Made by a program: the position numbers and the translations under genes
The notes under the pieces: generated by a model
Seen by the model: only the letters and a program-made list of their open reading frames with translations
Database searches by the model: none
What the model was told of the DNA's origin: nothing
Shown here: piece by piece, positions 3,881-26,608 of the stretch
Layout of the letters: every line of letters starts with the position of its first letter
How positions within the stretch are numbered: the first letter of the stretch is position 1
Assembly: GCA_963693365.1 (NCBI GenBank)
Contig: CAVNZM010000052.1
Location: 1-26,608 of the forward strand
DNA: 26,608 nt
Direction of reading: 5' to 3'
DNA from: Amoebidium appalachense
Lineage: Eukaryota; Protista; Ichthyosporea

Positions 3881-4522
3881 TCACACTTTCTTCGCTAGTG
3901 GAGAGGGGGGTTCGTTATTCGAAATTCGAGCTAAACTGGTGACACTGCATGCTGTTGTGTAAGCCCGTGAATTAAGTGGACCACATGGAACCACTGTGCC
4001 CATACAACAGTCTAAAGTTCGTGGTGGTGGTGCGCCGGCAGCGAGTTTTATTTTACACGTTGCGATATTTGACGCATCTACCGGGAGGTGAATACCTGTG
4101 GTGGTAATTAATATGCGAGAAACAGCTGTCTCCTCCGCACTCCCACGCAACCACCACACCGGAATACTACACCTGCGATTTTCCTTAGCATACATGAACG
4201 AAAGTTCTGCAGCACCGTAATCAATTCGTCCCTGTTGTGGCCCCATGAAATCAACACCTAATAAGGCATCATATGGTAGATTATCAATCACATGCCATCT
4301 GTGCACCACTAGAGCAGATTCGTTGGGAATGGCGAGAGTGAGAGATATACTTCCTTGGCATGTCATTTCGTTACTTTGTGCATCCAGTACACTAAAATTA
4401 GGAACATACTGAATTCGTTTTCTTGCCACTACAGGGAGAGATTCGTATAATGCTGTGCTTATACAGCTATGGCTAGCACCAGAGTCGACAACTACTGTGA
4501 TTAGCTTCCCATGCACATACAT
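3881..4522 (-). pseudogene. Retropepsin-type aspartic protease, Ty3/gypsy-like pol fragment
   Basis: VHGKLITVVVDSGASHSCIS catalytic motif and YDALLGVDFM C-terminal motif; no gag or RT linked within the window. Confidence 0.8.
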
Positions 4523-4660
4523 TCGCGCAAGTGTGGCTGTGCATTTTCTTTCGTGGGTTAATGTGCATTGGGGGGGAGGGGGGAGGGGGGGGGGGGGGGG
4601 GATGTGCTGTTTATTAACATTGCACTGGAAACAATGACAAAAAACCCTTGCATATCTGTG

Positions 4661-6394
4661 TTATCGGGCCAGCAGATCAGATAATAACAAATCCACGGTT
4701 GTTCTACTAAGATACAACGGGGAGCCACTCCAGTAGCCATAATGATCCCCGTCGTCATTGCCTTCGGGCCGTCCATGTGACCAATGATACGTGTCTACCA
4801 TTTTGAAGCCATATCTTGCTACAAGTTGCTCGGTAGCCGCATTGACGTGCCTTACTCGATGAGGAATTCTCAGGAAATTGGAATTACTTGTTGCCGGCAT
4901 TGACAGAAAATATGCTCTACCCCTACGAATAACATTGCCACATTCCTTCGCTATTACCTTCAACATGCAGGTTTCGAGAGATTGGAGTGTCTCGGCTGGT
5001 GTATGCTGATAAACGGACCATAGCCCATGATCAATAATAATGACGTCTGCACCCCAGCATTGGCCGGTGCCATTTCCTGGGGGTTTCAGCTGGGAAGAAC
5101 AAATGTACCCTTGGAATCTGAAATCCAACGTGGGTGCATTTTCAATCACGTTTGTCGTTTGATGATGGTACAGCCATTTGTCCCCATACTCAAAGGTGAT
5201 GTTTGGTGGTGCTAGAAGCATGGCCAAGTCTGCATAAAGCTCACGTGTGATTGAGTCACCAGCAATAAACATTTTGGAAATGTTAACAGCCTTAAGTGCC
5301 GATGCAATATCTTCTGGTTGGCTTTGTCGCTTCATATTTGCGACAACGTCCATTATGGGGCAGTACAAAAACTGGTTCATGTGTGCTTGCGGCATCCAAA
5401 TAAACGAATCGGACCAATAGTTGAGAGACTCGGTCACATTTGCAGTATTATTATCGGAAATCGAAGAATACAGCAGTTGTTCAGGAAACATACGACCAGC
5501 CTGACTCTTTCGCACCCATACCCCACGCTGTAGACCCGTGTAGTTGAGTGTTACCGTCTGACCATGCTGTACACAGTTGGACAGCAGATCCTGATCTCTG
5601 CTAAAACGGCTATCTGCGGCCATAAGGCTGAACACGGCCAGGGTTCCGTCCTCGTGTGTTCGGTATTTTGCTGTACGCTCAGTGCAATTGACATTGCTGC
5701 AAGACTGGTTGTAAAGTAAAGTGGGAACATCTTGGAGGAAGACTCGTAACACAAAAGTGTGCATTCCTGCTTCATATGGTATGAAGCTTATGGTGTAGTT
5801 TTTTTCACACACAACCTCCTCCCGTGGACCGAATTCGTTTTCACCGATTTCAATGTTCTGTGGTGTCATGAGCTCGTTGTCTCTGTCGGCCACTGTATGG
5901 TTCAAGCACCGCTGCTTACCGACATGGACACGTGCTACTTGACGCATGTTGGTGGAAATGATTTTCACGTATAGCTCGTCCTCTGTGTCCGGCAGTTGAC
6001 AGGTTTTAGTGATGGTAATGTTAAAGGCCTGTCCAACCTCAAGACGTTTGCCGTCAGCCCAGTCACCGATGTGTGGCTCGAGGTTAAGCTGCAAATGGGG
6101 ATCGAGAAAATAACAGGCTCCCAACCGCATTGCCGGTTGTTGTTGTGAAGGAGGGATGGCTGGTTGGGAGGATACTACTCTGTTCCACCATGGTGCAAAA
6201 GTGCTTTGTTCCGGCTGCCCGGCTTTGCTATAATTGAAAAGAGGACTATCATAGAAGGACGTAGCTGGTGACAGGGACAATTTGGAGAGACCCAGGCCCA
6301 ATGTGACTACCAAAACAATGACTAACAGTATTAATTTCCACGTATGTCTATTGATCGCCATACGTTTTCGAATGGCAAGTATGCCCTTATTCAT
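4661..6394 (-). CDS. Type II membrane SGNH/GDSL-like (PC-esterase / NXPE / TBL-like) O-acyltransferase or esterase, single exon
   Basis: Uninterrupted ORF with candidate ATGs at 6394 and 6361; basic residues then a hydrophobic anchor (WKLILLVIVLVVTLGLGL); Ig/filamin-like strand motif YTISFIPYEAGMHTFVLRV; catalytic-type motifs IAGDSITRELY and DGDHYG; many N-x-S/T sequons. Confidence 0.75.
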   Translation of the reverse strand: MNKGILAIRKRMAINRHTWKLILLVIVLVVTLGLGLSKLSLSPATSFYDSPLFNYSKAGQPEQSTFAPWWNRVVSSQPAIPPSQQQPAMRLGACYFLDPHLQLNLEPHIGDWADGKRLEVGQAFNITITKTCQLPDTEDELYVKIISTNMRQVARVHVGKQRCLNHTVADRDNELMTPQNIEIGENEFGPREEVVCEKNYTISFIPYEAGMHTFVLRVFLQDVPTLLYNQSCSNVNCTERTAKYRTHEDGTLAVFSLMAADSRFSRDQDLLSNCVQHGQTVTLNYTGLQRGVWVRKSQAGRMFPEQLLYSSISDNNTANVTESLNYWSDSFIWMPQAHMNQFLYCPIMDVVANMKRQSQPEDIASALKAVNISKMFIAGDSITRELYADLAMLLAPPNITFEYGDKWLYHHQTTNVIENAPTLDFRFQGYICSSQLKPPGNGTGQCWGADVIIIDHGLWSVYQHTPAETLQSLETCMLKVIAKECGNVIRRGRAYFLSMPATSNSNFLRIPHRVRHVNAATEQLVARYGFKMVDTYHWSHGRPEGNDDGDHYGYWSGSPLYLSRTTVDLLLSDLLAR

Positions 6395-6773
6395 TTTGAA
6401 CACGTTCAAAGTATCATACGGTGATTGAAGAACAAAAACCATCACCTGTCATGATGTCCCTAGTTGCTACCAACTGAACCGGGTCAGACTCAAAACGCCG
6501 TTCACCTAGCATCTTAAGCTCGGACGCCCCGCCAGACGAACACCAGCGCGCATTGTAAACGCATTGGTATCATAAATTGAAGTTGATACGAGTTACCATT
6601 GTAGTTAGCTCTGAAATATGCGAGATATAAATAACACAATGTCTGTAATCTCAAGAGTAAACAAAGCATTCACAAAGAAACGTGTAGCTACTGTATGTGC
6701 GCGTTGCTAGCTAGACAAGGATCTGAAGCTTGAGTCGGCATGGGACAACGGGACTGTGGGAAGAGAACGGGGT

Positions 6774-6901: not shown

Positions 6902-7556
6902 GAATTTATTCCTACGTTTCTATTTTTGAAATGCTCCGTTTCCGAAATAGGCGGCAGGGCCCAAAAAGCATGGACTGTACACTAATTGACCACCGAATTT
7001 TTTAGCACCAGCCACCAGGGAAAATGCTATTGGATAGCATAAAGGGTACGTCAGGGTTGTGGGGTTTTGGCTGCGCTACCAGTGTGCCTCTAACTCAAGC
7101 GTATTGTCAGAATTTCTAAATCGCATTGGCGGGGTTCGTCTCATTTAACGGCTCGTATAGACCCCGACTATTATTAAATTTGACAACCAATTTCAGATAA
7201 TTTTACACTCCTTTAGCCATTACACACCCCGATAGACAAATATAGGTTCATATTCCGGCCTTGAGTGCCAAAATAACCACCTGACCACCCTAACCCTTGG
7301 AAAACACCCATTTCTATATTAAAAAACACCAAAATACACTATTGTGACCTATCTTACTGCTACGAGAAACCAATCCAGCACCTCACAGCTTTACTCGTTT
7401 TGACCCCCTGAGCTTTTAATAAATATATCGTAAATACGGCAATTTTGAGTCGTACCGCAGCCCTGGGAGGCTGGGGTACCTACGAATTCGTACGTACGCA
7501 GACTGCTGAATTATCACTACTTGGCCAGATGTCCCCCCCCCTCTTTAGCATGAGCA

Positions 7557-7600
7557 TGATTGCGCAAACACTCGATTGATCCGAATTTCTGCCGCATAAC
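7557..7600 (+). repeat. Left (sub)terminal inverted repeat
   Basis: 15-bp and 17-bp blocks identical to the reverse complement of 11858-11889, separated here by 12 extra bp. Confidence 0.75.
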
Positions 7601-7853
7601 TCATTTTGAGCACGGTGCGCGCAAAAAAATGACCGAAACTCGACGCACCCGCGGCATCGTTTTCGTTTTCTTTATCAGCCGGTGGTGTTACTTTTGTTCA
7701 AAACTTTCCACGTAACGCTTCGTTTTTTACTCTACTATTATTTTATTTCTTTGGGGGTTTATTTTTTTTTTGTCGCCGCCCATGAGCTGGCATTAGCTTT
7801 GTTAGCCCCTAGTAACACTAGAACTGCATGTCTTTTCTCACACCATTACCACC

Positions 7854-8580
7854 ATGGGCATCCAGGGGCTGTTACAGGTGCTAGACTTGAAACAAGAACA
7901 ACGCACAGATATAACTGAAGAATTGCGTGGCAAAGTAGTAGCAGTAGATGCTATGTGTTTTCTTCATCAGGCAATTCCACGGCAAAGTGAAAGCTGCGGT
8001 CGGAAAGAAACAGTTTGCCAATCAACCGATTGAGAGGAAAGATCTAGCTACCATTGAAAACAGTTTCATGAAAAAGGTAGATGAGCTAGAGTATTCAGGC
8101 GTTCAAGCAAGATATGTTTTTGATGGTCGTAGGTTAGAGCATAAATTAGAAGACGAAACAAGGAAAAAGAAAATCACAGATGCACGCGAAACACTAAAAG
8201 CAGTCGGTGCAGCAGCTACAGATGAACAGTACGCGGCGGCGGCTGAGCTGGACAATTCAATCGTCCATGCTGCAATCAGTGCTCTTACACAAGACCCAAA
8301 AACCCCCGTTATAGTAGCCCCATACGAGGCAGATGCACAGCTTGCTTACATGGTGCATAGTAAACAAGCGGATCTGGTGATAACAGTCGACTCTGGTGAT
8401 AACAGTCGACTCGGATCTACTTTTGTATAATCCCCCGATTTAGGGAAATGGAAAAATGCGTCCAAAGAACACAAAGATCTTAGATCTTACTTCAGTCAGA
8501 ACCCACAGTTAGCCGAAAAATATGGAATGAAATTAATGTCTTTTAAAAACAGGCGGGAGCGCCTTAAACAGGAGGACTAG
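7854..8580 (+). pseudogene. Exo1/FEN1/XPG-family 5' nuclease, disrupted
   Basis: ATG 7854 reads MGIQGLLQVL...LRGKVVAVDAMCFLH (XPG-N). After a frameshift near 7970 come RYVFDG and VIVAPYEADAQLAYM...VITVDS(DLLLY) (XPG-I). A 19-bp tandem duplication at ~8376-8413 breaks the frame. No H3TH motif is seen; the end coordinate is approximate. Confidence 0.85.
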
Positions 8581-8874
8581 GGATAAAAGTAGGTACTAAA
8601 TGATACTGCAAACTAATGTAACACGATTTTGAATCATTCTTCTTTGACATTTGTAATGTTCTTTGTGTGCTGTTTAATAAATACAACAAAACCACAAAAG
8701 GTGGTGAGCTCAATTGTGCATTCTCCGTGAGCTGTATTTGAAATCCCCCCGCCCCCCCCCCTCCCCCCCCCCCCCTCTCCCCCTCCCCCCCTCTCCCTCC
8801 CCCCCCTGCCCCCCCCCCCCCTTCCCCCTCCCCCCAAACCCACCCTTGGCATTCCCCCCCCCCCTCCCCCCGCA

Positions 8875-9655
8875 TGTTGTTTTGTGTGGGTAAACGGAGA
8901 AGCAGAGAGCACAGATGGGTGTTATGTTATACACAACACAGAGACACACGGGAGAAACACAACCGGAGAGGTGGAACGGTTACTGGGACCATAGGAAATG
9001 AATTCGACTGCTTGATAGTTATTTCAAGATGAAGTTCCTTTTATACTCAGGAATGTGAAATCGATAAGCCAATCAAAAGAACGAAAACTCTATTTTCCAA
9101 TCAGAAAGACGAAAACTATGAGGGTAAAATAAATCGATCGAAATGCCTGTCGACACATAGAAGATAAAACGCAATCTCCTAATGAAAGTAATCTTCTAAT
9201 AAAAGTACGGAAACATTTAACAAAATGAAACCACTTATGTATCTATTAGTTCACATCATATATTTATACATGTTTTAAACATAACACGTCTAAATATAAG
9301 CATTCCTAATAGTTGGGGAACATAGAGCAATGCTACGTCGTGGGAAAAGAAGGAAAAGGAATGAGGATAGAAAGGAATCGAATAGAATTAATGAGGAATG
9401 TAGGTTACTATATTTGGGAAAATATAACGAGATTTGATTAGACAACATATTTAGACATTGACGCAAACAACAATACGTGTGCGCGGGCTAAATAGCTCGA
9501 TGTGTACACAGATCTAAGATATTTGTGCACACGGAAACAGAAAGGAAAGAAAGAAAGGAAGAAAGGAAAAGGGAAAAGAAAACAACTACAACAAACTAAT
9601 AAACATATATAAAACTCAACTTCTAAGTCTTGCCGTTAATCATGGGAAGATGACA
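8875..9655 (-). mobile_element. Solo LTR, family A (781 bp), TSD CCGCA
   Basis: TG...CA termini; CCGCA at 8870-8874 and 9656-9660; lies in a C-rich tract between the two convergent genes. Confidence 0.93.
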
Positions 9656-9667
9656 CCGCATCCCACC

Positions 9668-9699
<32 letters not shown>

Positions 9700-9938
9700 C
9701 CGGCCCCCCACAAAAAAGAAAGTTATAAAACAAAACACAAAACATGTACAGAAAGCAGGGCAATATTGAATCAAACTATCATACCTACCTACAACTAGTA
9801 GCACGTTATTTCCTCTCTCATTTATAAAACCAATTAAGAACACACAGCCAATCAGATGGCTTTTTCCCCCTTAAACTCTAAATTAACAAACCGGAAAAAC
9901 GCCAGAGAGAGAGAGAGGGAGGAGACATAAGGCCTTGC

Positions 9939-11636
9939 CTACAACATATCACGAATGAGGGGAGGCATCATGTTGAACAGAAACGTGACAGCCTTTGCTA
10001 TGTACCCCTGCATTCCTACCACATTTTGCTCAATCGTATTAGACATGGCGGCAAATTCCTTCATACGGCTAATAGCGCGCTCAACATGCACACGCACATT
10101 TGCCAGACGCTGAGAGTAGGTTGCGTCTTCAGCATTTAACACCCCTTCATCTACAAAAGCAGGTAGCAAAAGCTCACCCCCCTTTTTTGCTATCAATTCA
10201 AACACTCTGAAACCCTCATCCGCTAAAATCTGATCCCCAGATTCGATCTGGGAGAGGAACCCATCCACACAGTGCAGTTAGTGCCGGATCAGTAATGCTA
10301 CCACCATGCCCATCGGATATGTATCTTATTTTCATGTCTGGTGTTATAACAACTAAATATATTATTGTGTAACGGGATTTGTAGTTGGAGTAGAATAACC
10401 TTTTTCCTTCCAGATCCGCCGGAATTTCCACCTGCACCTCCGTGCAATCAATAATGAAGCGCACTTTATCCCACGGACCAATGAAACACCTCGCCTTCTT
10501 TTTCGAAAGTTCCTCCACCGTGGGTGCAGCCTAAAAAAAAAGAACTTGGGCCGCCGCGAGAATTTCACAGTTTAAGTTGAATATATCAGATAGCCTACGA
10601 GCAGGCACACCAGCAAAATAGCGAAGCAACCCATGTGTGAGCCCGTGCCTCAGGCGCATGTGGGTGTATAGGACACCGTCCTCAGAAGAAATAACCCGTC
10701 CATCTTTTGCCTTCAATTTTCTTTCTTTCTTCTTGAGTTCCTTCACAATACCCACCACATTTAGTAAGTCCTCGTATTGGGGAAGGCCCGTAAAAATTCT
10801 TACCGAGGAGTCCCTTTCCTTTTCGGCCAAGCTGGCAAGAGCCTCAACTGAGACTGCATGCACGTTTTGTTTGGCTAATTTTTGGTTCAGTTTTAGTATT
10901 TCCTTCTTCTGCTCCAGAACTTTTAACTCCAACAACTTCCTCTCTTATTCTTTCTGTTCTATTACGGCAGTTGCAGCTAGTAGCTTAGCAAGGTCTTGTT
11001 TCAGCCGTGCATTTTCTTGCCTCGTACTCAAAAGCTCCCGTTCAATATCTCCCCCCCTACTTCCTTTTCTATGCGCGTTTTGCTTCTTACTTTCTGTCTT
11101 TTTCCACGTTCGGTGCCATCATCTCCTTCGTATCCCCCGTGCGCACTTTTCTTTCCGCTCACCTTTTCCTCGGCGTTGCGATTCAACTCTTCTGTCATAT
11201 GAGGAACAGCTTTTGCCATCCGCTCGACAGATGCATTAGTGAGCACAGGATCCTTCGCACGTCCCAATGGGACTGCATCAGCCGTAAGGGCACCATTGCA
11301 AATGTGCTCGGGTTTAAAATGATCCTGGCACACAGAAAGCTTCTTAAGTCGTGGAATGCATGAGGCAGGACGCCCAACCTTCTTTTTTTTGTTCTTAGTG
11401 GGGCTTGTCTTGCTCTTTTTTATGTTTTGTGGTAGTGGATGTGCAAGTGGATCTCTCAGGTGATTGAGAAACAGCTTTTCTTTCTCTAAGTATTTCTTTG
11501 TCTTTCCTAGCAGGGTGAGCCACACTATTCTTTTTTTTATGTTCTCTTCCGTTCTTTCTGTGCTTATATGAAAATATTTCAGGTGGGGTGTTTTGGTTGA
11601 TTCATTGCGACACCATTCAGCTACACACCCAGGCAT
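9939..11636 (-). pseudogene. THAP zinc finger + HTH + DDE_Tnp_4-type (Harbinger/ISL2EU-like) transposase
   Basis: MPGCVAEWC...W...VCQDHF...AVP (THAP); FTGLP...MRLRHGL (HTH); FIIDCTE, YSNYK, GGSITD, ILADEGF, RVHVERAISRMKEF (DDE core). Split over four ORFs by frameshifts and one in-frame TAA near 10945. Confidence 0.9.
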
Positions 11637-11857
11637 CTTGCTAGATCTCTCACACTCCCGGCAAGAAGATGGACCAATTAGCCCGCAACCAGTGCAATAA
11701 TAAAATAATATTTGTGCTTTATTATAGTATTTTAGACACACAGTGCCCAAAAAAACAGCCCTCTAGAACCTTTGAAGGCGCAGCCCGGTCGTTGAAGTCA
11801 GAGGGAAAAGTTCTTCTTTACTGTCGGTGCAGTGTGGGCGAATGCGCTTCGGATTAC

Positions 11858-11889
11858 GTTATGCGGCAGAAATTGTGTTTGCGCAATCA
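11858..11889 (-). repeat. Right (sub)terminal inverted repeat
   Basis: GTTATGCGGCAGAAATTGTGTTTGCGCAATCA, reverse complement of the blocks at 7557-7600. Confidence 0.75.
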
Positions 11890-12172
11890 GTGCTGATCTC
11901 TATAGATCATTTAGCCCCTAGAATCTCAGTAATCGTGAAAGTTTTCAAAATTCCGAACTTATCACCTTCTAGATCTAATGGCCTATCGTTATTTAGGCAA
12001 ATTCCGAGGATTTCGACACCCTTCAGGGTCATATTCAGTATTCAATCTATCCTAGATCACCTTGTTAATGCTGCCCAGTATGATATTGTGATACGGTGTC
12101 TTAAACTTTCTATCGGAGCTACCGATGCTAGCCTCTGCTTACCCATAATATGTAAGAGGGGTGTCGTATACT

Positions 12173-13589: not shown

Positions 13590-14778
13590 TCAATCGACAA
13601 TGTCCGGCACACAAAGTCGGGCACGATGGGTGATGTGACTCGGGCCAGGGAGGGGCTTGGTGAGGATGTCGGCCAAGTTGTGAGCTGACTCGACGTAGTG
13701 GATAACAACATCCCCACTGGCAATGTAGTCTTTGGTGTTATGGTACCGGACAGCAATGTGTTTGGTACGGTGCTTGATGCCGGTGGAGTTGACGATGGCA
13801 ATGGTCGACTGGTTGTCACAATACACCGGAGTCGGAGCAAGCATGGGGCAGCCGAGTTCCTTGAAGAGGTCACGGACCCAAGCAACTTCCTGGGTGCCGG
13901 CATTGAGAGCAATCAGCTCAGCTTCGGTGGTGCTGGTGGCCGTGATGGGCTGGAGCTTGGATTACCAGATGATGGGCATACCAGCAAACTCGATGATGTA
14001 ACCGGTGGTAGACTTCTTGCTGTCAGCACAACCAGCAAAGTCAGCATCCGTGTAGCACTCGAGTATGGGGGGCTTGGTGGCCGAGTACTTGTAATCAATG
14101 CCAAGGTCAATGGTGTCGAGGAGGTACCGGGCCACACGACGGAGAAGGTCCCAGTGAGTCTTGCCGGGGTTGGTGCTGAACCGACCAAGGAAGCCGAATG
14201 GCACAGGCAATGTCGGGACCTGTGCACCGTGCCACCCAGAGAAGGCGGCCGAGTAACTCACGGTAGGGCACGGTGAACGGTTGGGGGGGGGCAGTCAGCC
14301 AGGGAGACGGTGGTGCCTGCAGGGATGGGGGTAGACTTGGACTTGGCATCGGTGAGGTTGAAGTCGTGGATGATATCCATGATGTAAGACCTCTGGTGCA
14401 TGTGTAGGTGATGGGGATCGGAGTGATTAAAATCAACACCGAGCATACGGCCAAACGGACTCATACGACAGCTGGCCATCTTGCTGATGTGGGCAGCCAG
14501 GTCACTGGCAGCAGTAGAACCCCGGGTGTTGGTGATGGTGGAGTTGTCGACGTAGTTACCAGCCCGAACCACATCGTTGTTGGGGAAGAACCGGAGGTAG
14601 ATGCACGGGTCGGTCTTAGTACGGGTCAGGCCATGGGCAAGAAGAATGCCGTCGAGGAAGTCGTACCAGGCCTTGGAGGCTTGCTTGAGGCCATACAGGG
14701 CTTTCTTGAGTCTCCAGACCTTTTCAAGGGTGGCCATGGTGATGAATCCCGGTGGCTGTTTCATGTAGATGGTCTCGG
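13590..14778 (-). pseudogene. Ty1/copia reverse transcriptase-RNase H fragment (family B)
   Basis: ETIYMKQPPGF, LKKALYGLKQAS, YVDN (from YVDD), YRELLGRLLW, YTDADFAG, YCDNQS, RTKHIAVRYH, NLADILTKPL; several frameshifts; cut upstream by the LTR A insertion. Confidence 0.95.
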
Positions 14779-15524
14779 TGTCATCTTCCCATGATTCATA
14801 GCAAGACTTAGAAGTTGAGTTTTGTATTTGTTTATTAGTTTGTTGTAGTCTGTTTCCTTTTCCCTTTTCCTTTCTTCCTTTCTTTCTTTCCTTTCTGTTT
14901 CCGTGTACACCGATATCTTAGATCTGTGTACGTATCGACATACTTAGCTCGCGCTCACGTATTGTCGTTTGTGTCAATATCTAAACATGTCATCCAATCA
15001 GATCTCGTTTGTATTTTCCCAAATATAGTAACTTACATTCCTTTCCCATTCCTTTCTCACGACGTAGCATTGTGCTATGTTCTCCAACTATTAGGAATAA
15101 TTATATTTAGACGTGTTATGATAAGAACATGTATAAATGTATGATGTGAACTAATAGGTACATAAGTGGTTTCATTTTGTTAAATGTTTCCATATTTTTA
15201 TTAGAAGTTTCTTTCATTAGAGGATTGCATTTTATCTTCTATGTGTCGACAGACATTTCGATCGATATATTTTACAATCATAGTTTTCGTCTTTCTGATT
15301 GGAAAATAGAGTTTTCGTTCTTTTGATTGGTTTATCGTTTTCACATTCCCAAGTATAAAAGGGACTTCATCTTGGAATAAATATCAAGCAGTCGTATTCA
15401 TTTCCTATGGTTCCAGAAATTGTTCCACCTCTCCGGTTGTGTTTCTCCCGTGTGTCTCTGTGTTGTGTATAACATAGCACCCATCTGTGCTCTCTGCTTC
15501 TCCGTTTACCCACACAAAACAACA
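14779..15524 (+). mobile_element. 5' LTR of copia family A (746 bp)
   Basis: TGTCATC...AACAACA; followed immediately by a PBS-like motif and gag. Confidence 0.92.
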
Positions 15525-15548
15525 GGTTTACGGCCCCTTTGCACGCTA
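15525..15548 (+). promoter_or_regulatory. Primer-binding site of half-tRNA type (GGTTTACGGCCCC...GCACGCT)
   Basis: Directly after the LTR's CA; resembles the copia GGTTATGGGCCCAGCACGCT half-tRNAiMet PBS. Confidence 0.55.
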
Positions 15549-15599
15549 ACACACAATCTCGGTACAACCGCCAAATTCCTCCATCTTACTGCTTCAATC

Positions 15600-16765
15600 A
15601 TGACTGACAAACCGTCGTACATCAACCTTCCAATATGGAATCCGTCCGAGAAAAGAGACGAGAAACGTCTCAATTATTTCGAATGGGAACCACTCATTCA
15701 CCGGTTCATAAGAACAACCATTGCCGAGAAATTCGTTGACGCTATGAAGAGGCCACAGTGGGTTGACGGCACTGAAGCCAACCAGTGGCTAGGCTACGCC
15801 ACCAAGGACTCCTACAAGAAAGCTTCCTACGTCCTTGACCAGATCCTCAACCAGTCCGTCCATCCGACCGAGCTCTACGACTCCGGCCGGATGCAAGACG
15901 GTGTCCACGGTGGAGAAGTCTTCCACAACCTGCGTATGGCGTATGTGGCAGAGAAGGAGGCCCGTGTCACCCAGATTCAAGTCACCTACGAGGAGCTTGA
16001 ACTAAGAGACTACCCCAACGTCACAGCATACCTCACCCGCCTCCAACGTCTGCTGGCTACGACACTTGCCCGCCTCGACGAGCCCTTCCAGCACAAGGAT
16101 GTCGTACGTAAGTTCTTCCTTCACCTCCGGAAGAACACGGCCCTGGTCTGCTCCGACATTGAACGTCTCTGCTCCGACTACTGGATGAACAACAAGGCCT
16201 ACCCATCCTTCAACCAGCTCATCAGTGACATCCGAGGAGCTGAAATCCGTGCCGGCCTCATTGACGCAGGCACTGGTGCAACCGTCAACAACCGTCCTCT
16301 TCGTGCACTCCAGAGCAGAATGCTTCCCCCCGGTGACCTCCGTAACCGTATCCCTCGACGTGAGCATACACCTCACCGTTCCCCGTCCCGTTCCCGTGAT
16401 CCTCGTCCGTCCTCCAAGTCACCCGGCCCCCGTTCAACTTCCCCTTACCACCGTGGTAACAGGGACAACCGTAACCGACAGCACAACACCAAGAAGGTGG
16501 AGTGTTCCTACTGCCATGAGCCCCACCACATCACAGCATGCCCGGAGCCTGGCTGTGCTGTTGCTCGTCGTGCCAAGCAGGAGAAAGGCAACAAGAGTGT
16601 GCAATTTGCACTCATCTCCTCCACCGGCACACCCGACCGTGACGACCCCGTCTGGGACAGTGCTTGTAATGCACACATCTGCCCCATCAAGGAGTATTTC
16701 TCCTCCCTTACCCCGTGTCCCCCCACCCCCATTCATGGCCTCGGCACCGTCAATGCCACACACCG
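15600..16765 (+). CDS. Copia gag (zinc knuckle) + start of protease, truncated
   Basis: ATG 15600 MTDKPSY...; CSYCHEPHHITAC knuckle; VWDSACNAHIC copia protease motif; truncated at a 25-bp LTR B remnant. Confidence 0.88.
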
Positions 16766-16790
16766 TATGTAAATACTACGTATTACAACA
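16766..16790 (-). mobile_element. 25-bp 5' tip of LTR family B
   Basis: TATGTAAATACTACGTATTACAACA, identical to 13073-13097. Confidence 0.85.
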
Positions 16791-17129: not shown

Positions 17130-17406
17130 TGTTGTAATACGTAGTATTTACATATGGTAAGATCTTCTCAGTTTGTGTTATGTTTCAGTTCATATGCTTA
17201 GTGTAAAAGCTACACTCCTATTATGAGGAATTTCAGGTATTTATTCGAAGATCAGAATAAATTCAGTTTAGTCGTGTCTAAACATTGATGTCTGTTGTGT
17301 ACACTGCTCCGATCGTTCCGTGTTGTGTTGTTGTGTGTGTCTGTGGTGTTTTCACACTGCACCACTGTGTCTCTGCTTTCATCCCAAATACTTATACAAT
17401 TTAACA
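17130..17406 (+). mobile_element. Internally deleted solo LTR, family B (277 bp), TSD CTGGG
   Basis: Both LTR B termini are present, joined near 17225; CTGGG at 17125-17129 and 17407-17411. Confidence 0.9.
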
Positions 17407-17435
17407 CTGGGCTCAAACCCCCCCCCCCCCCCCCC

Positions 17436-17980
17436 ACACCAGGGAGCCCCTCCTCTCCTCCCACCTCAGCCTACTCCATGGCCAGTGCCCCACCAAAGCC
17501 TCCTCGGCCAATCTCCGGCTATGGACGGCCCTCATCGTCGGTTTCTGTGGTCTCCTCCGTTCGGGGGAATTTACCTCCAAGACCCTGACTTCCTTCGACC
17601 CGTCCCGTCACGTTAAAACGGAAGGACGTGACCCTCAGCTACACCCCCACCGCCCATCTCCTCCGGCAGTTCCTGGATACAACGTCCGGTCAACCCGACG
17701 ACCCCCTGTTCAGTCTCGGTGGCATCCCCTACACCAAGGATGCTTTCTCTGCCGACTTCCGTGCCCTCCTCTCCCGGGCAGCCTGAGGCCTCTCACCCTC
17801 CCGGTTTGCCGGCCACAGCCTCCGAATAGGGGGGGCCACAGCCCTGGCTGAGGCCGGAGTCGACGACTCCCAGATCAAACAACTCGGCAGATGGTCCTCC
17901 GACTGTTTCCTGATCTATACTCGACTTCGCCCGCCCTCCATTGCTGCCACTACCACACGTGTATTCGCCTCTATTCTCTT
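17436..17980 (+). pseudogene. Tyrosine recombinase of an Ngaro/DIRS-class retroelement (absent from the ORF track)
   Basis: Manual translation: LWTALIVGFCGLLRSGEF ... DDPLF ... RAA*GLSPSRFAGHSLRIGGATALAEAG...IKQLGRWSSDCFLIYTR, giving the catalytic R, HxxR, W and Y residues; one in-frame stop and a deletion or frameshift. Confidence 0.92.
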
Positions 17981-18014
17981 AAGTGAAACCTTTGGAGCAA
18001 GCATACTGCTCTCG

Positions 18015-18676
18015 TGCCGTGGTTTACAACCATTGCAGGTTCACTTTCGTCCAAGGGGACGTCCCCCTAGAGGCAACACACGTCCCGGAGTAGTTTTCAT
18101 AGAGGTTTTATTTGTGGAGTTTTATTGACATAAATATTTTTCTGGGTAAACACGTAGGATGGGTGTCCGATATCAACATAACTTGAACCATGTAGGCTTC
18201 GTTTCGTGTTTTAGCAGCTCGCGTTCGGCTGCCCGCATACGGGCACCTATTAGCCGATCAAAACATCAGATTCCACAGATCACTAGACCGAGTTTGATTG
18301 GCTCAACATCAGATTTCAACATAACACTAGATCGATTTTGATTGGCTCAGATCGGGAGCCTTAGGTATATAAGCACGACAGTTTTTAGCAGATCAGCAAG
18401 CAACAGACACATCTTCTGTGTTTGGCACCTACAGCTTTACAGCTATATTTTCTTTTCACCCACCCACATACACCCAACACTCAACCCCCATTGATCCACA
18501 CATACGTGCTGTTTTTTCACGGGGCGAAGACTTCCCCCGTTTTTTGGGCACAAGGACCTCACGGATCAATAAATTGATGACTGGGGGCTTGCCGTGGTTT
18601 ACAACCATTGCAGGTTCACTTTCGTCCAAGGGGACGTCCCCCTAGAGGCAACACACGTCCCGGAGTAGTTTTCATA
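18015..18676 (+). repeat. Split direct repeat end (B1 18015-18101, A2 18102-18589, B2 18590-18676) of an Ngaro-like element
   Basis: Two identical 87-bp copies downstream of YR; the spacer contains ATTGG boxes (~18297, ~18341) and TATATAA (~18366). Confidence 0.8.
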
Positions 18677-19162
18677 ATTAATGAAGTCTGATCACACATG
18701 TCAACCTAAGTGTAGCCTAAGTGTGTTACCGTCCAATCAACACATATTAAGTAACACAAATCTACCTAACATATATTAGTAGAAAAGAAATATGAGTATA
18801 CACATGAAGACAGGGAGGGAAGGAAAAGAAAATAAGGAAGGAGAAAGAGAAAGGAGAAGAGAGCACAGATCAACAAACAAGATAGTAATAGTATAACTAT
18901 AACTAGAGATATTTATGTACACACGAACATGTACACGTCTCTCCCTGAGTGGGTGGATCCGTGTACACACATATAATTATTCTAATTGATATTACAATAC
19001 ACGATTAAAGCCGATACAACACGATTACAAGTATACAAGCATATCGGAGATCGATGCTACACTTTACATAATAGGAGTGTGGCATTTACACTAAGCATAT
19101 GAACTGAAACATAACACAAACTGAGATGATCTTACAATATGTAAATACTACGTATTATAGCA
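18677..19162 (-). mobile_element. LTR family B, 5' half (target of the Ngaro-like insertion)
   Basis: Highly similar to ~12608-13097; junction CATA|ATTAATGAAG versus GTAA|ATTAATGAAG in the intact LTR. Confidence 0.88.
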
Positions 19163-20114
19163 GGGGCCCCTCAGCCTGCCCAGGAACCGGGGGCGCCGTC
19201 CAGACGAAATGCTTGCATACGCCACGGCCGCACCCGCGCGGGAAAATCACCTCAGAGGGGCGCAGAGGCACACTTGCCGAAGCCAACCCCTGAATGACGG
19301 GCCACCACGACGCCATATCCCACACTGGAACGACGAGGATGCCCGCTGCACCTTCCCGCTGCACCTTGGCCACCGTTCGCTTGATCAGCGGGAACGGGGG
19401 CGCCCACCAGCTTGGTGCCGTCCACGGCACCGCCAACCCGTCTGCCATCCCACTGGGGGCCCCTGCCTGGGCCCACACATCAAACTCGGCCTTCACTGCC
19501 GAGGTGTGGGTGGCAAACCGATCAACTTCGGGCTGCATGCCCAGCAGCCACTCCACCCGCTCGACTGCCTCCGGCGTGACTTGCCATTCATGCCGGGGGT
19601 CCACCCGCGACAGCCAATCTGCTCGGTCGTTGAGCTCACCCGGGATGTAGGCCACCTCCTGTGGCCAAGGCAACCCGTGGTCGAGGCACAACTGCAGAAG
19701 CTGCCACAGAATGCGCTGCATCGAGGGGCTGCCGCTGCCCTTTTCCCGCACGGCCCCAAGGGCCGCCTGGGCATCGGTATGCCACTGCACCCGCTGCCCA
19801 CGGAGGGCTTCCTGCACTGGCAGGGCAGGGCTCTGATAGGCCTCCAACAGGCCCTCACACTCCGCAATCGCGGCCGCCCGCGGAGCTTCGTCGGCTGCCC
19901 ACCTGCCCGCCGCCTCAAGCCGCAGGGGCAGGGGATCCCGCCACTTGAAGCACGGCCCCCCAGCCGTGTGTGGTGGCAGCATCCGTGATGAGCGTAGCCG
20001 TGACCGGGTTGCAGGGCCATATCTCCGCCCGAGGCAACCGGCCAATGAACTGGGGCGTCCGACCGATAATCCGTAACTGACGCCCCGAAAGCCGAACGAA
20101 ACTGCGCCAATTTC
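19163..20114 (-). pseudogene. DIRS/PAT-like RNase H + DNA adenine methyltransferase-like domain
   Basis: TDAATTHGWGAV (other frame), VQWHTDAQAA and YIPGELNDRADWLSR (RNase H); PEVDRFAT, WWAPPFPLI and ILVVPVWDMASWWP (DIRS MT domain). Confidence 0.88.
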
Positions 20115-20857
20115 TGTCATCTTCACTTGATTCTCAGCAAGACTTAGAAGTTGAGTTTTGTATTTGGTTATTAGTTTGTTGTAGTTTGTTTCCTTTTCCT
20201 TCTTCCTTTCTTTCTTTTCTTTCTGTTTCCGTGTACACCGATATCTTAGATCTGTGTACGTATCGACATACTTAGCTCGCGCACACGTAATACTATTGTC
20301 GTTTGTGTCAAAATCTATATATGTCATCCAATCAAATCTCGTTAGTATTTTCCCAAATATAGTAACTTACATTCCTTTCCCATTCCTTTCTCACGACGTA
20401 GCATTGTGCTATGTTCTCCAACTATTAGGATTGATTATATTTAGACGTGTTATGATAAGAACATGTATAAATGTATGTTGTGAACTAATAGTTACATAAG
20501 TGGTTTCATTTTGTTAAATGTTTCCGTGCTTTTATTAGAAGTTTCTTTCATTAGAGGATTGAGTTTTATATTCTATGTGTCGACAGACATTTCGATCGAT
20601 ATATTTTACACTCATAGTTTTCGTCTTTCTGATTGGAAAATAGAGTTTTCGTTCTTTTGATTGGTTTATCGTTTTCACATTCCCAGGTATAAAAGGGACT
20701 TCATCTTGGAATAAATATCAAGCAGTCGTATTCATTTCCTATGGTTCCAGAAATCGTTCCACCTCTCCGGTTGTGTTTTTCCCGTGTGTCTCTGTGTTGT
20801 GTATAACATAACACCCTCTGTGCTCTCTGCTTCTCCGTTTACCCACACAAAATAACA
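20115..20857 (+). mobile_element. Solo LTR, family A (743 bp), TSD ATTTC
   Basis: TG...CA termini; ATTTC at 20110-20114 and 20858-20862. Confidence 0.93.
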
Positions 20858-21640
20858 ATTTCCCCCGCGTAGGGCGGCATACACTGGCCGCACCAACGTC
20901 AGCATGTGGGGAGTGGCAGCCCGCAGACTCATGACCACCCCCAACCACCGGGTGACTTGCTTCTTTTCCACCCATCGCTTGCCCTTGCGAGCCTTGGCCA
21001 TCACCCGCTTGATCTCCTCCACTGCACCAGCTTCTCCATACAATAGGTGGCGGTAGAGGCCAACACACCTGCGGCAAGGTCGACATGGATGCCTAGATGG
21101 TCGAGATGGTCGGTGGGCTCCCACTGGCCCTAAGCTCCGTATTTCGGCTCAGGCCCGTTGCCTCGAGCTGCCCCTCAACAACACCGCGAGTTCGCAGCGC
21201 CTTTAGCGGCCGTTCGACGACCCACCAGTCGTCCAAGAACGCTAACGTGCGCACACCGCGCCGGTGAAGACGCCGACCGAACTCCTTCATGAGCCGCATG
21301 AAGTAGTATGGGCTGAGGGAATAGCCGAAAGGCAGCACAGTGTACTGATACAGCTGCCCGCCAACCCGAATATGAAAATATTTACGCCACCGTGGCGCAA
21401 TTGCCAGCGCAAAGTAGCCGTCTTTCAGGTCGAAACTGAAGCCGTGGTCACCTGGCTGAGCAATGACCTGCAGGTCATGATCACTGAGCGTCTCGTACTT
21501 GAGGCCCCGCTACACGGCACACTCATTCACTGGGCGCATGTCGATTATCAGCCACACTTTACCGTTTGGTTTCCGCACCCCAAACGTGGTCGACACGCAA
21601 TGCTTCCTGGACTCGTCGATGGGTTCAAGTGCGCCCTTAC
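20858..21640 (-). pseudogene. DIRS/PAT-like reverse transcriptase
   Basis: KPNGKVWLIIDMRPVN, SFDLKDGYFAL, YQYTVLPFGYSLSPYYF, LAFLDDWW; has an in-frame stop and frameshift; continuous with 19163-20114 across the solo LTR. Confidence 0.92.
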
Positions 21641-22415
21641 TGTTGTTTTGTGTGGGTAAACGGAGAAGCAGAGAGCACAGATGGGTGTTATGTTATACAC
21701 AACACAGAGACACACGGGAGAAACACAACCGGAGAGGTGGAACGATTTCTGGAACCATAGGAAATGATTTCAACTGCTTGATATTTATTTCAAGATGAAG
21801 TTCATTTTATACTCAGGAATGTGAAATCTATTATCCAATCAGAAAGACGAAAATTATGAGGGTAAAATAAATCGATCGAAATGCCTGTCGACACATAGAA
21901 GATAAAACGCAATCTCCCAATGAAAGAAATCTTCTAATAAAAGGTACAGAAACATTTAACAAAATGAAAACACTTATGTATCCATTAGTTCACATCATAC
22001 ATTTATACATGTTCTTAACATAACACGTCTAAATATAAGCATTCCTAATAGTTGGGGAACATAGAGCAATGCTACGTCGTGGGAAAAGAAGGAAAAGGAA
22101 TGAGGATAGAAAGGAATAGATTGGGAAAGGAATCGAATAGAATTAATGAGGAATGTAGGTTACTATATTTGGGAAAATATAACGAGATCTGATTGGACAA
22201 CATATTTAGACATTGACGCAAACAACAATACATGTGCGCGGGCTAAATAGCTCGATGTGTACACAGATCTAAGATATTTGTACACACGGAAACGGAAAGG
22301 AAAGAAAGAAAGGAAGGAAGAAAGAAAAAGGGAAAAGGAAACAAACTACAACAAACTAATAAACAAATGAAAAACTCAACTTCTAAGTCTTGCCGTTAAT
22401 CATGGGAAGATGACA
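21641..22415 (-). mobile_element. 3' LTR of a copia family A element (775 bp)
   Basis: Full LTR A; no TSD (CTTAC vs TCCCC); a PPT abuts its 5' end. Confidence 0.9.
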
Positions 22416-23546: not shown

Positions 23547-24162
23547 CTCGCCCCCTCCTCTCTACTCCTTATTCCAAGTAAACGTCACCATATAAGATCA
23601 AAATAAAAATCCTAAATCCAGAAAGTGGTAAATTGTCAAATTTCAGAAAAGCGTCAATTTTGGAATTTTTCAAGACACAATCTGGAATTTATAAGCTTTA
23701 TAAGAAATCTTAAATTGTAATTAAACTTATTTCTTCAAACAGTAGTAATTCTAGTACCTTTTTGAATAGAGATGGATTATGGTTAATCCCTTAGATTCAT
23801 GAGTCTAAGTCCTTTTAGGTTGGAGCACCGCGAAAGTTCCGTAGGCTTCCGTAGGTACCAATTCCTACACTATTTTATATCTAGTTCTGTCAGGATATAA
23901 GATGAAAAATACAATCCTAAATACAACATGTGATCGAAATCCAAAAAATCGTCAATTTTGGAAATTTAGCAGATGAGGGATTGAGATTAATAAAAATATT
24001 AAAGAGTTATTAAATTGGTTTTGTAGCATTTTGTTAGAAATTCCGTGCTATGTTAATAGTACTGTAGCAGTAGGAGTAGAATTTAATTATTCAAGAATAG
24101 GAAAGAGAAAAGATGTATAACAGCATTCATGTGATAAAAATGTAATAAATATAGCATTAGTA

Positions 24163-25505
24163 GGTATAGTAGTTTAATATTAATGTTTAGCAAGAGTGGA
24201 CAAAGTAGAAATAAATATAAATACAATAGTGATAAGAGGAGTAGGTCTAATCGTGGGATTAGAAAGTGATAAATGAGGAAGAGGATTAACCGGAGAATAT
24301 GGATAGTTAATCGTGGAATAGAAGCTACATTAATGTTGGTAGTTGCTTTATTAATGAAGTATAGAAAATAGAACGAGTATAGTTTTTTTATTATTAATTC
24401 AGATTTAATAGAAAGTATAAGTTACTATACTCTCAGATAATCCTATATATAATGTGATTCTTACAATTAGCACTCCCGATGGTCGTATGCATACATATCT
24501 AATTAGGTTCATTAAGTCCATGACTATGTATCATATGAAATATTATTTAATAGCCCATACGGCAGATCTACCGTGTAATGTTGTATCAATCTTCATAAAA
24601 TTAGAAAGGTTGAATCTAAACAACATTCAATTATTAAATAATAATAGTAGAGTATTAGGGCAATAATTCTGTAGAGTAATAGTACCTTAAACGAATCTGG
24701 ATAATCTATTCTATCCACTTGGAATTTCTGGACTTAATAAAAATTTTATAGGTAATAAAGGAAGGAAGTACTATTAACATAGTACTTAATTAGTATAAAA
24801 GTATGATCGTAAAGAGTAGATGCTTGTACTTCACGAGCTTGTCGTATCGTCCTGATAAGAGCATAAGATTATTCTTTTAGGAAAGAATCTCTTAAGAGAC
24901 TTTACCTGGCTCTCTAATAAATAGAGTAGTTACATTATTCAATTAGTAGGAAAGCATCACTTTAAAGAGGAGGTTCGAGTACTTCCCGAGTTTGTTGTAT
25001 CGTGATGATAAGAGCATAAGACTATTCTTTAGTAAGGTAGTTCTTAAGAAACACTAACTAGCTCTCTAATAAATAGAGTAGTTACACTATTCAATTAGTA
25101 GGAAAGCATCACTTTAAAGAATAGGTGTGAGTACTTCCCGAGTTTGTTGTATCATGATGATAAGAGCATAAGACTATTCTTTAGTAAGGTAGTTCTTAAG
25201 AAACACTAACTAGCTCTATAAATTTTTAGAACTGTTATTATTTTATTAGTAAGAAAGAGAAATTAATAAATATGGTATTAATAGATATAGTAGTTTAAAT
25301 AGTAATGTTTAGCAAAATGGATAAAGTAGAAGTAATCGATTTAATATAAATACAATAGTAATAATAGGAGTAGGCTTAATCGCGGGATTAGAAAGCTATG
25401 AATTAGAAAGAATAATGGAATTAACCGGAGAATATGGATAGTTAATCCTTGAGTATTGAATAGTAACTACATTAAGATTAGTAATTACTTTATTAATGTA
25501 TGAAA
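24163..25505. repeat. Diverged ~200-bp direct repeats (~24163-24365 and ~25285-25505)
   Basis: Shared blocks TAGTAGTTTAA, AATGTTTAGCAA, GGAGTAGG, GGGATTAGAAAG, TTAACCGGAGAATATGGATAGTTAATC. Confidence 0.8.
24811..25218. repeat. Tandem repeat, ~152-bp unit, ~2.7 copies
   Basis: Units start at ~24811, ~24964 and ~25116 (GATAAGAGCATAAGA core). Confidence 0.88.
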
Positions 25506-25526
25506 GATAATGGTTACAGATTATTC

Positions 25527-25680
25527 CATTAAAGACAAGGGATGCTGATTATTGCATTAAAGACAATGGATGCTGATTATTGCATTAAAGACAATGGATG
25601 CTAATTAAAGTATAAAAATTAATGGATGCTGATTAATGCATCAAAGGTAATGGGTGCTAATTAATGCTTTAAAGGAAATG
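25527..25680. repeat. 28-bp minisatellite (CATTAAAGACAATGGATGCTGATTATTG), ~5.5 copies
   Basis: Directly visible tandem units. Confidence 0.88.
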
Positions 25681-25764
25681 AAATATTGAGTGTTGAAAGG
25701 CTTAGTAATACACCAAAGGTGGTGGAACGTTAAGTAATGCAGAAAAGGTAATGTATGAAAGGTA

Positions 25765-25895
25765 GTAAGATGCGGAATAAAGTATAAAGATAGCGAAATG
25801 TGGAATAATGTATAAAAAATAGCGAGATGCGGAATAATGTATAAAAGATAGTAAGATGCGGAATAATGTATAAAAGATAGTAAGATGCGGAATAG
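25765..25895. repeat. 29-bp minisatellite (GTAAGATGCGGAATAATGTATAAAAGATA), ~4.5 copies
   Basis: Directly visible tandem units. Confidence 0.88.
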
Positions 25896-26380
25896 TGAGG
25901 CGTAAAAAATGCGGGGAGAGGGGAAAGATAACCAGAGGATAAAAATCCTGAGAATAATAAAACCAAATAGGGATAAGAATAATTAGATAGTATAGTGTAA
26001 ACGAAATGGTATAAGGATGAAAAGAATCAAATAATAGGATTACGACAAAGATAAGAAGACATTAGGTCAAGAAGGTAAGATGTTAGGATTATATAATTAA
26101 TTAATAGATGAAAATTTACGAAAGAATAATAGATCGAAGACGATAAAAGATTAATGGAATAAAGAAGTAATATCGGTAAAAAGAATAGTAAAGTGATAGC
26201 AATGGCTAGGGAAAAGAATAATAGTAACATTATTAAAACTCTAGTTAGAATTTAACCTCATAAGACTATTTGTCATTGTACTTTTAATACAATTCGTCGA
26301 CCAAATTTCACATAGAGATTCCTTAATCTAGTACTCAAATTAATTGATAGTAGGATTTTCGCCAGAAATGGCCCAACTTT

Positions 26381-26541
26381 CTTAGGAAGGGTCCAAACTC
26401 GCTTAGAAAAGATCCAACTAGCTTAGGAGAGATCTTGCGCACTTAAGAAAAATCCTGTACACTTAGGAGAGATTCTGCGCACTTAAAAAAGATCCTGCGC
26501 ACTTAGGAGAGATCCTGCGCACTTAGGAGAGATTCTGCGCA
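26381..26541. repeat. 20-bp minisatellite (CTTAGGAGAGATCCTGCGCA), 8 copies
   Basis: Units at 26381, 26402, 26422, 26442, 26462, 26482, 26502 and 26522. Confidence 0.92.
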
Positions 26542-26608
26542 GTTACAAGGAACCTTATCGCTAGATAGAAGTCTATACTCTTGTCTTAACCGGCAAACAA
26601 ATCTACAG

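Follow-up and report, generated by a model that had tools for sequence, protein, structure and literature searches.

The window analysed here, the whole 26,608-nucleotide stretch of contig CAVNZM010000052.1, was found to contain a decayed DNA transposon at positions 7546-11902, which measures 3,571 bp once a later solo long terminal repeat (LTR) is removed. The element is bounded by terminal inverted repeats (TIRs) and contains a broken, intronless Exo1-type nuclease of the XPG/FEN1 family as its second open reading frame (ORF; 7854-8580, forward strand, assigned by Pfam and by its match to human Exo1), followed by a broken ISL2EU-type transposase (9939-11639, reverse strand, assigned by its Pfam domains and by 28-34% identity to the ISL2EU-type proteins P0157-P0160). 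Two convergent genes within a shared inverted repeat had been proposed in a sequence-only reading of the same DNA, and this layout was borne out by TIRs that exceed chance and by Pfam domains on opposite strands. Sequence comparison establishes where the element ends, that it contains two convergent genes, to which families these belong, and that a diverged relative has both of them.

The inverted repeat that bounds the element is imperfect and about 45-55 bp long, and was found to contain two perfect arms, one of 15 nt (7557-7571 / 11875-11889) and one of 17 nt (7584-7600 / 11858-11874), which are separated by 12 additional bases in the left TIR. The local alignment of the TIRs scored 45, a value equalled by 0 of 1000 shuffles (mean 18.8, maximum 34), and the 13-mer of the TIR core was found at two places in the window, namely both TIRs and no others. 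The outer end of the left TIR (7546-7600, forward strand) is decayed, the exact terminus lying somewhere in 7546-7548. The right TIR (11858-11902, reverse strand) contains the outer junction TCTCTA-TA, as in a YqaJ-type relative (locus L022), and is covered by a contig of the public run X10 that spans 11647-11904. The nuclease and the transposase start 254 and 219 bp, respectively, from the inner TIR ends. Counted from the termini the distances are 308 and 263 bp; the starts 220-250 bp inside the repeat that were given previously therefore refer to the inner ends.

The three observed ends read TTTAG, TATAGAG and AATAGAG. They are compatible with a TA duplication (7546-7547 / 11901-11902) and GAG termini, or with an AT duplication and AG termini, one side being mutated, and the 3-bp flanks of the element do not form a TWA duplication. 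The GG termini and the A|AT|T target typical of ISL2EU were not matched by these ends, and no empty site was seen. In L022 the TATAGA junction was found at both ends; ends of the TATAGA type are therefore already present among ISL2EU-type elements.

The nuclease was found to contain XPG_N from position 7854 (E 8e-7), followed by XPG_I (E 1.6e-8), and its closest solved structure was human Exo1 (E 2.7e-6). The acidic metal-binding motifs VAVD, VFDG, APYEAD and ITVDSD are retained through the N and I regions, up to an internal deletion at 8437 into which the H3TH region and the last acidic motif fall. The other lesions are an extra base near 7973 and a 19-bp tandem duplication at 8374-8411. Past 8437 the frame continues as a tail of 47 codons and then a stop, and the 47-residue tail gave no match among the Exo1-like proteins collected.

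A search of 1.84 billion representatives with the nuclease returned 269 matches at E <=0.001, the top one (P0001, 46% identical) being an Amoebidium parasiticum transcriptome record. With P0001 the lineage of the window nuclease has one more member, and the origin of this record hints at an ichthyosporean-like host. In a tree of 41 rows hand-picked from 93, partial rows being omitted there as in the transposase tree below, the window nuclease and P0001 came out as long-branched sisters (support 99/98) within the Exo1-like proteins, while the viral FEN-like proteins branched elsewhere; identity to canonical Exo1 was at most 39%. Among viral contigs, the nuclease alignment matched five FEN-like loci, in whose retrieved DNA no ISL2EU transposase was found, and the DDE piece, P0091, alignment A3 and the TIR pattern gave no match. 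A plasmid search also gave no match, and an ESM Atlas search returned generic DDE_Tnp_4 and XPG clusters and nothing more. Of the two sources named for the nuclease in the sequence-only reading, host or virus, the former agrees with its host-like Exo1 type and the latter was not supported by the tree for the viral FEN-like type tested; the gene was likely captured from a eukaryotic host.

The transposase, read on the reverse strand, was found to contain a THAP domain (about 11627-11418; E 2e-4, just short of the Pfam cut-off), followed by a coiled-coil region, a weak HTH_Tnp_4 (about 10689-10624; E 0.047) and DDE_Tnp_4 in two pieces (about 10452-9972; E 4.5e-16 and 1.1e-13). Of the profiles suggested earlier for checking the element, XPG_N, XPG_I and DDE_Tnp_4 were thus found, with THAP and HTH_Tnp_4 weak, and in the six element pieces scanned with Pfam neither YqaJ nor Myb was matched. 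Frameshifts near 11050 and 10275 and stops at 10945-10947 and 10531-10533 break the frame. Read through these two stops and two frameshifts, the transposase is colinear, without large gaps, with the transposases of YqaJ-carrying loci, and the DDE triad is retained. It also contains the PHIS catalytic motif D(19-29)K(29)D(18-40)D(11-19)P(18-28)R(3)E at spacings of 22-29-22-18-22-3, a motif given by Han et al. 2014 (PMC4122938; PHIS superfamily, ISL2EU group) and common to all PHIS groups. Colinearity, triad and spacing together uphold the ISL2EU-type assignment.

In a tree of 25 rows, from which near-duplicates and fragments were dropped, the transposase was placed on a very long branch among ISL2EU-type rows as against three prokaryotic outgroup rows (100/99), and a position outside the other 21 ISL2EU-type rows was not rejected (p-AU 0.31). 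Harbinger, Spy, Nuwa and Pangu are not represented in this tree, so that the assignment to ISL2EU is based on motifs, on the presence of THAP and on the gene layout. A word-index protein search returned 4 matches among 6396 candidates with the HTH-DDE read-through and none among 479 candidates with the DDE piece 10219-10530. Contigs of the public runs X1 and X2 have two more bases in the C run at 11051-11057 than the window does, likely through an assembly homopolymer error. The idea that two extra C at 11050 hide an open frame was rejected, the frame being broken with them too; the run length alone is in doubt.

Diverged relatives and other ISL2EU loci

Contigs of the public runs X1, X2, X9, X10 and X15 were compared with the element. 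Those of X1 and X2 match the window nearly letter for letter and are possibly its source, and so do not count as independent evidence. In X10, which is labelled as another organism, contigs were found over both genes and both ends. Divergence from the window came to 4.4% for the nuclease region (30 of 681 bases) and to 4.3% for the transposase (48 of about 1,116), in agreement with the similar decay of the two genes that had been noted before. The nuclease of X10 contains neither the extra base at 7973 nor the 19-bp duplication, the latter being absent from X15 also, and the gene is longer in both runs. Since both contain extra DNA at 8437, the window copy is internally deleted at this junction (forward strand); the relatives were found to contain at least 162 bases behind the point and at least 118-136 before it, in pieces that are not joined.

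In the coding part before the deletion, 8 of the 15 listed differences were synonymous against 22-29% expected (p 0.009-0.037). Cover in X9 was limited to 7830-8000 and 8191-8366, and X15 was deeper on the 3' piece. The flanks of the element were uncovered in X10 and the LTR almost so, and no weight was given to absence of cover. The terminal motif at 7553-7595 was found to start two more contigs of X1 (depth 648 and 193 against 162) with unlike interiors and was also present in one contig of X15 with a different flank and interior; in X1 the nuclease gene was covered at >=80% identity by the window's own contig alone. The X10 and X15 data show that the two genes are present together, that they have diverged to an equal degree and that the nuclease was recently under selection; the copy in X10 may be a separate insertion or lie at the orthologous site.

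With the transposase alignment, 25 further ISL2EU loci were retrieved, 21 from metagenomes and 4 from genome contigs. A convergent YqaJ-type gene was found in 14 of them (12 of the 21 and 2 of the 4, respectively), as counted by Pfam on chosen ORFs, with one of the 12 just below the YqaJ cut-off and several contigs too short to contain a second gene. The window nuclease occupies the place that YqaJ has in these relatives, that of the convergent second gene. An Exo1/XPG-family gene was present in none of the 25 loci when all ORFs of at least 40 aa were searched with an Exo1 profile, which makes the pairing lineage-restricted and not general. The earlier proposal that the nuclease is carried with the transposase stands for X10, with both genes and both ends, and does not extend to these loci. 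Eukaryote-type ISL2EU elements lie on long contigs of genomes labelled archaeon or bacterium (L022:4913-8776, L024 and L025), with YqaJ in L022 and L024 and a near-perfect TIR in L022; these contigs are likely host DNA binned into prokaryote genomes.

A SWIM module, which is not a published ISL2EU criterion, was found in 11 of 12 YqaJ ORFs checked. The profile of these 11 ORFs matched the Exo1-like protein P0133 (803 aa) at E 6e-6, and of the roughly 160 proteins scanned, from the XPG search and its clusters, no other scored below E 1. The match is missed by Pfam and was confirmed by hhalign (E 1.4e-4), with the CxC-x8-CxH core followed by the downstream T...W residues. In P0133 the nuclease precedes SWIM and in the YqaJ ORFs SWIM precedes YqaJ; the opposite order indicates that the change was not a domain swap in place. 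An AlphaFold model of P0133, made with no alignment, was unusable (pLDDT 35). In the best tree P0133, P0091 and P0018 lie apart from the window pair, although a single origin was not rejected (p-AU 0.36). The three make up a divergent set of Exo1-like sequences, taken from marine-type records and from Telonema subtile. Since P0133 ends in the SWIM module of ISL2EU second genes, these Exo1-annotated genes may in fact belong to transposons. Among 18 selected long or odd Exo1 matches, no transposon domains were found by Pfam.

Known systems and the role of the second gene

The element resembles ISL2EU as described in Han et al. 2014 and Han et al. 2015 (PMC4482050) in the presence of THAP, HTH and DDE_Tnp_4 with the same motifs, in two ORFs and short TIRs, in a 5' nuclease as the second ORF (convergent in the loci retrieved) and in an AT-rich 2-bp junction. 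It differs in the nuclease itself, which is Exo1/XPG with a PIN-like fold whereas the ISL2EU second gene is YqaJ, of lambda-exonuclease type (PMC4482050, PMC4122938, PMC9179366). Its termini are TAG, AG or GAG against the usual GG and its target appears to differ from that in PMC4482050, and its host is likely a non-animal whereas all 25 families of that paper are animal. The supplements of PMC4482050 were found to contain no mention of XPG or SWIM and 13 of YqaJ. PIF/Harbinger, Nuwa, Pangu and Spy share a related DDE_Tnp_4 core with common motif spacing. In PMC4482050, however, their second ORF is Myb/SANT, unknown or none, their transposases are described without THAP, and their target site duplications (TSDs) are TWA, CWG, TNA, ANT or none. 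Eukaryotic Exo1 of the XPG/Rad2 family shares XPG_N, XPG_I, the Exo1 signature and the tree nesting with the window gene, which differs in being intronless, long-branched, placed within TIRs and provided with a short C-terminal tail.

The accessory nuclease of AcademX is of XPG type. AcademX, of the Academ superfamily, is set apart by description, having a transposase of another superfamily and a TSD of 3-4 bp, the window transposase being of DDE_Tnp_4/ISL2EU type; the likeness is that in both a DNA transposon carries a nuclease as its accessory gene (PMC10045372). No description of an ISL2EU-XPG pairing was found in the open full-text literature, including the available portions of PMC12730594, PMC11244446, PMC8204020, PMC5499597 and PMC5751038, which agrees with the novelty claimed before; Repbase, Repbase Reports, Dfam and subscription journals lie outside this search, and a prior entry there is possible. 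The element works like ISL2EU but lacks YqaJ, and what is new is Exo1 in its place.

The reading preferred here is that of a dead ISL2EU-type cut-and-paste element whose Exo1-type second gene, taken from a host, did the job of YqaJ in end trimming. As a whole this is considered rather probable. The identity of the element is very probably as stated, and given that identity the trimming role is slightly favoured, by analogy with YqaJ. Binding to the TIRs would be the task of the THAP and HTH domains, excision and insertion of the element that of the DDE core. The nuclease would trim the 5' (non-transferred) strand at the ends made by the transposase and clear leftover flanking DNA, and the trimmed ends would allow insertion to be completed with a 2-bp duplication. 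The lambda-type YqaJ and Exo1 have unrelated folds and a common activity, 5'-to-3' exonucleolysis at a DNA end. The choice of end trimming is based on this shared activity, to which the replacement of one enzyme by the other points. A change from YqaJ to Exo1 would be the simpler reading of the direction of the swap. The replacement of YqaJ that had been put forward earlier is thus supported in part, by the ISL2EU-type transposase, the position of YqaJ and the joint presence of both genes; its "new architecture" is better described as an ISL2EU variant. A broader version, in which a 5'-nuclease step is obligatory for ISL2EU transposition and host Exo1 replaced the second gene more than once (in this likely ichthyosporean lineage and separately in that of P0133/P0091), is possible and remains doubtful.

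Several points weigh against the preferred reading. The absence of Exo1 from the 25 other loci is one, and another is that the window copy, with its gene deleted at 8437, shows no detectable SWIM. The best tree places P0133 in another group than the window nuclease, and P0133 and P0001 are known here as proteins alone. The X10 contigs are short, at depth 2-6, and none bridges both genes. The synonymous test comprises the 15 differences of a source table that omits those near contig ends. No fused nuclease-transposase was found among 7237 proteins of 836-2385 aa in a weak search with the transposase alignment, and the literature examined was found to contain neither a tested function nor a measured activity for any ISL2EU second gene.

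The same element with the same constitutive second gene would also result if the nuclease resects the donor break, after which homologous recombination from the sister chromatid would raise the copy number. Resection is an activity of Exo1 as well as of lambda-type exonucleases, and all the sequence evidence for end trimming fits donor resection equally. Resection would normally be provided by host Exo1, however, so that the gain from carrying one would be less clear, and the accessory enzyme of Academ, in another superfamily, was tied to TSD length, which points to the integration step there (Kojima, PMC10045372). Donor resection is held to be unlikely, and is still the main rival, passive cargo and a chance neighbourhood being less likely.

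It is improbable that the nuclease is cargo, that is, a processed Exo1 copy gained by one small family after the loss of YqaJ and without a role in transposition. Such an origin would agree with the restriction of the pairing to this lineage and with a window copy that has no SWIM, and exchangeable accessory genes such as TET/JBP are known on DNA transposons (PMC12730594). It would leave unexplained the open frame and synonymous excess in the relatives, the exact occupation of the ORF2 position, the Exo1-SWIM fusion of P0133, and a second family member at 46% identity, which implies long persistence. A decayed duplicate of host Exo1 beside a transposase relic, with an inverted repeat that forms part of neither or of just one of them, might be expected where nested element fragments crowd the window. 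Such a chance neighbourhood is nevertheless very improbable, as the TIRs enclose exactly both genes at similar distances, X10 contains both ends and equal divergence of both genes, the motif of the ends was met again beside a different flank and a different interior, and the nuclease lies on a long branch far from canonical Exo1s.

If the preferred reading of an Exo1-type enzyme in the place of YqaJ is true, an unrelated fold with the same 5'-to-3' nuclease chemistry at the same position would argue that the element needs the activity and not the fold. ISL2EU would then join a small number of cut-and-paste systems that encode an enzyme for processing their ends, the group would extend beyond animals, and among the divergent genes annotated as Exo1 in protists and algae some would belong to transposons.

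Solo LTR and surroundings in the window

Between the 3' ends of the nuclease and the transposase the element contains a solo LTR (TG...CA; 8875-9655, forward strand), which is a later insertion and not part of the DNA transposon. It is flanked by the TSD CCGCA (8870-8874 / 9656-9660). A solo LTR at 8875-9660 had been described earlier; its presence was verified, and 9656-9660 proved to be the 5-bp TSD. Copies of 85-90% identity were found elsewhere in the window at 14776-15524, 20115-20857 and 21641-22415, and the read depth on the LTR was very high in X1 and X2. To its left, also between the gene 3' ends, the sequence contains a C-rich low-complexity tract (8745-8874, no strand assigned) that resumes at about 9661-9710. 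Long poly-C/poly-G tracts were found at 2200, 3280, 4570, 6775, 8745, 9670, 13210, 16830 and 17420, and the solo LTR lies within one of them.

On the left of the element, an open frame of 595 codons (4661-6448, reverse strand) contains a hydrophobic N-terminal stretch and gave no Pfam match at E 0.1. Its GDS and DxDH-like motifs recall SGNH-type acyl esterases or transferases, and it resembles an intact host gene surrounded by remains of elements. A frame of a retroviral-type aspartyl protease was found at 3881-4660.

On the right, Copia-like fragments at 13590-16772 (a gag-like frame at 15381-16772 and RT/RNase H-like pieces on the reverse strand at 13590-14917) are interleaved with copies of the solo-LTR family. 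They are followed by a tyrosine recombinase fragment (17405-18128; E 1e-3) and a reverse transcriptase fragment (19155-21509; E 1e-13), both GC-rich, which suggests a DIRS-like retroelement split by LTR insertions. The end of the window (24000-26608) is AT-rich, with a GC content of 27-32%, and contains tandem arrays of 153 bp (24783-25182), 28 bp (25492-25687) and 20 bp (26382-26565).

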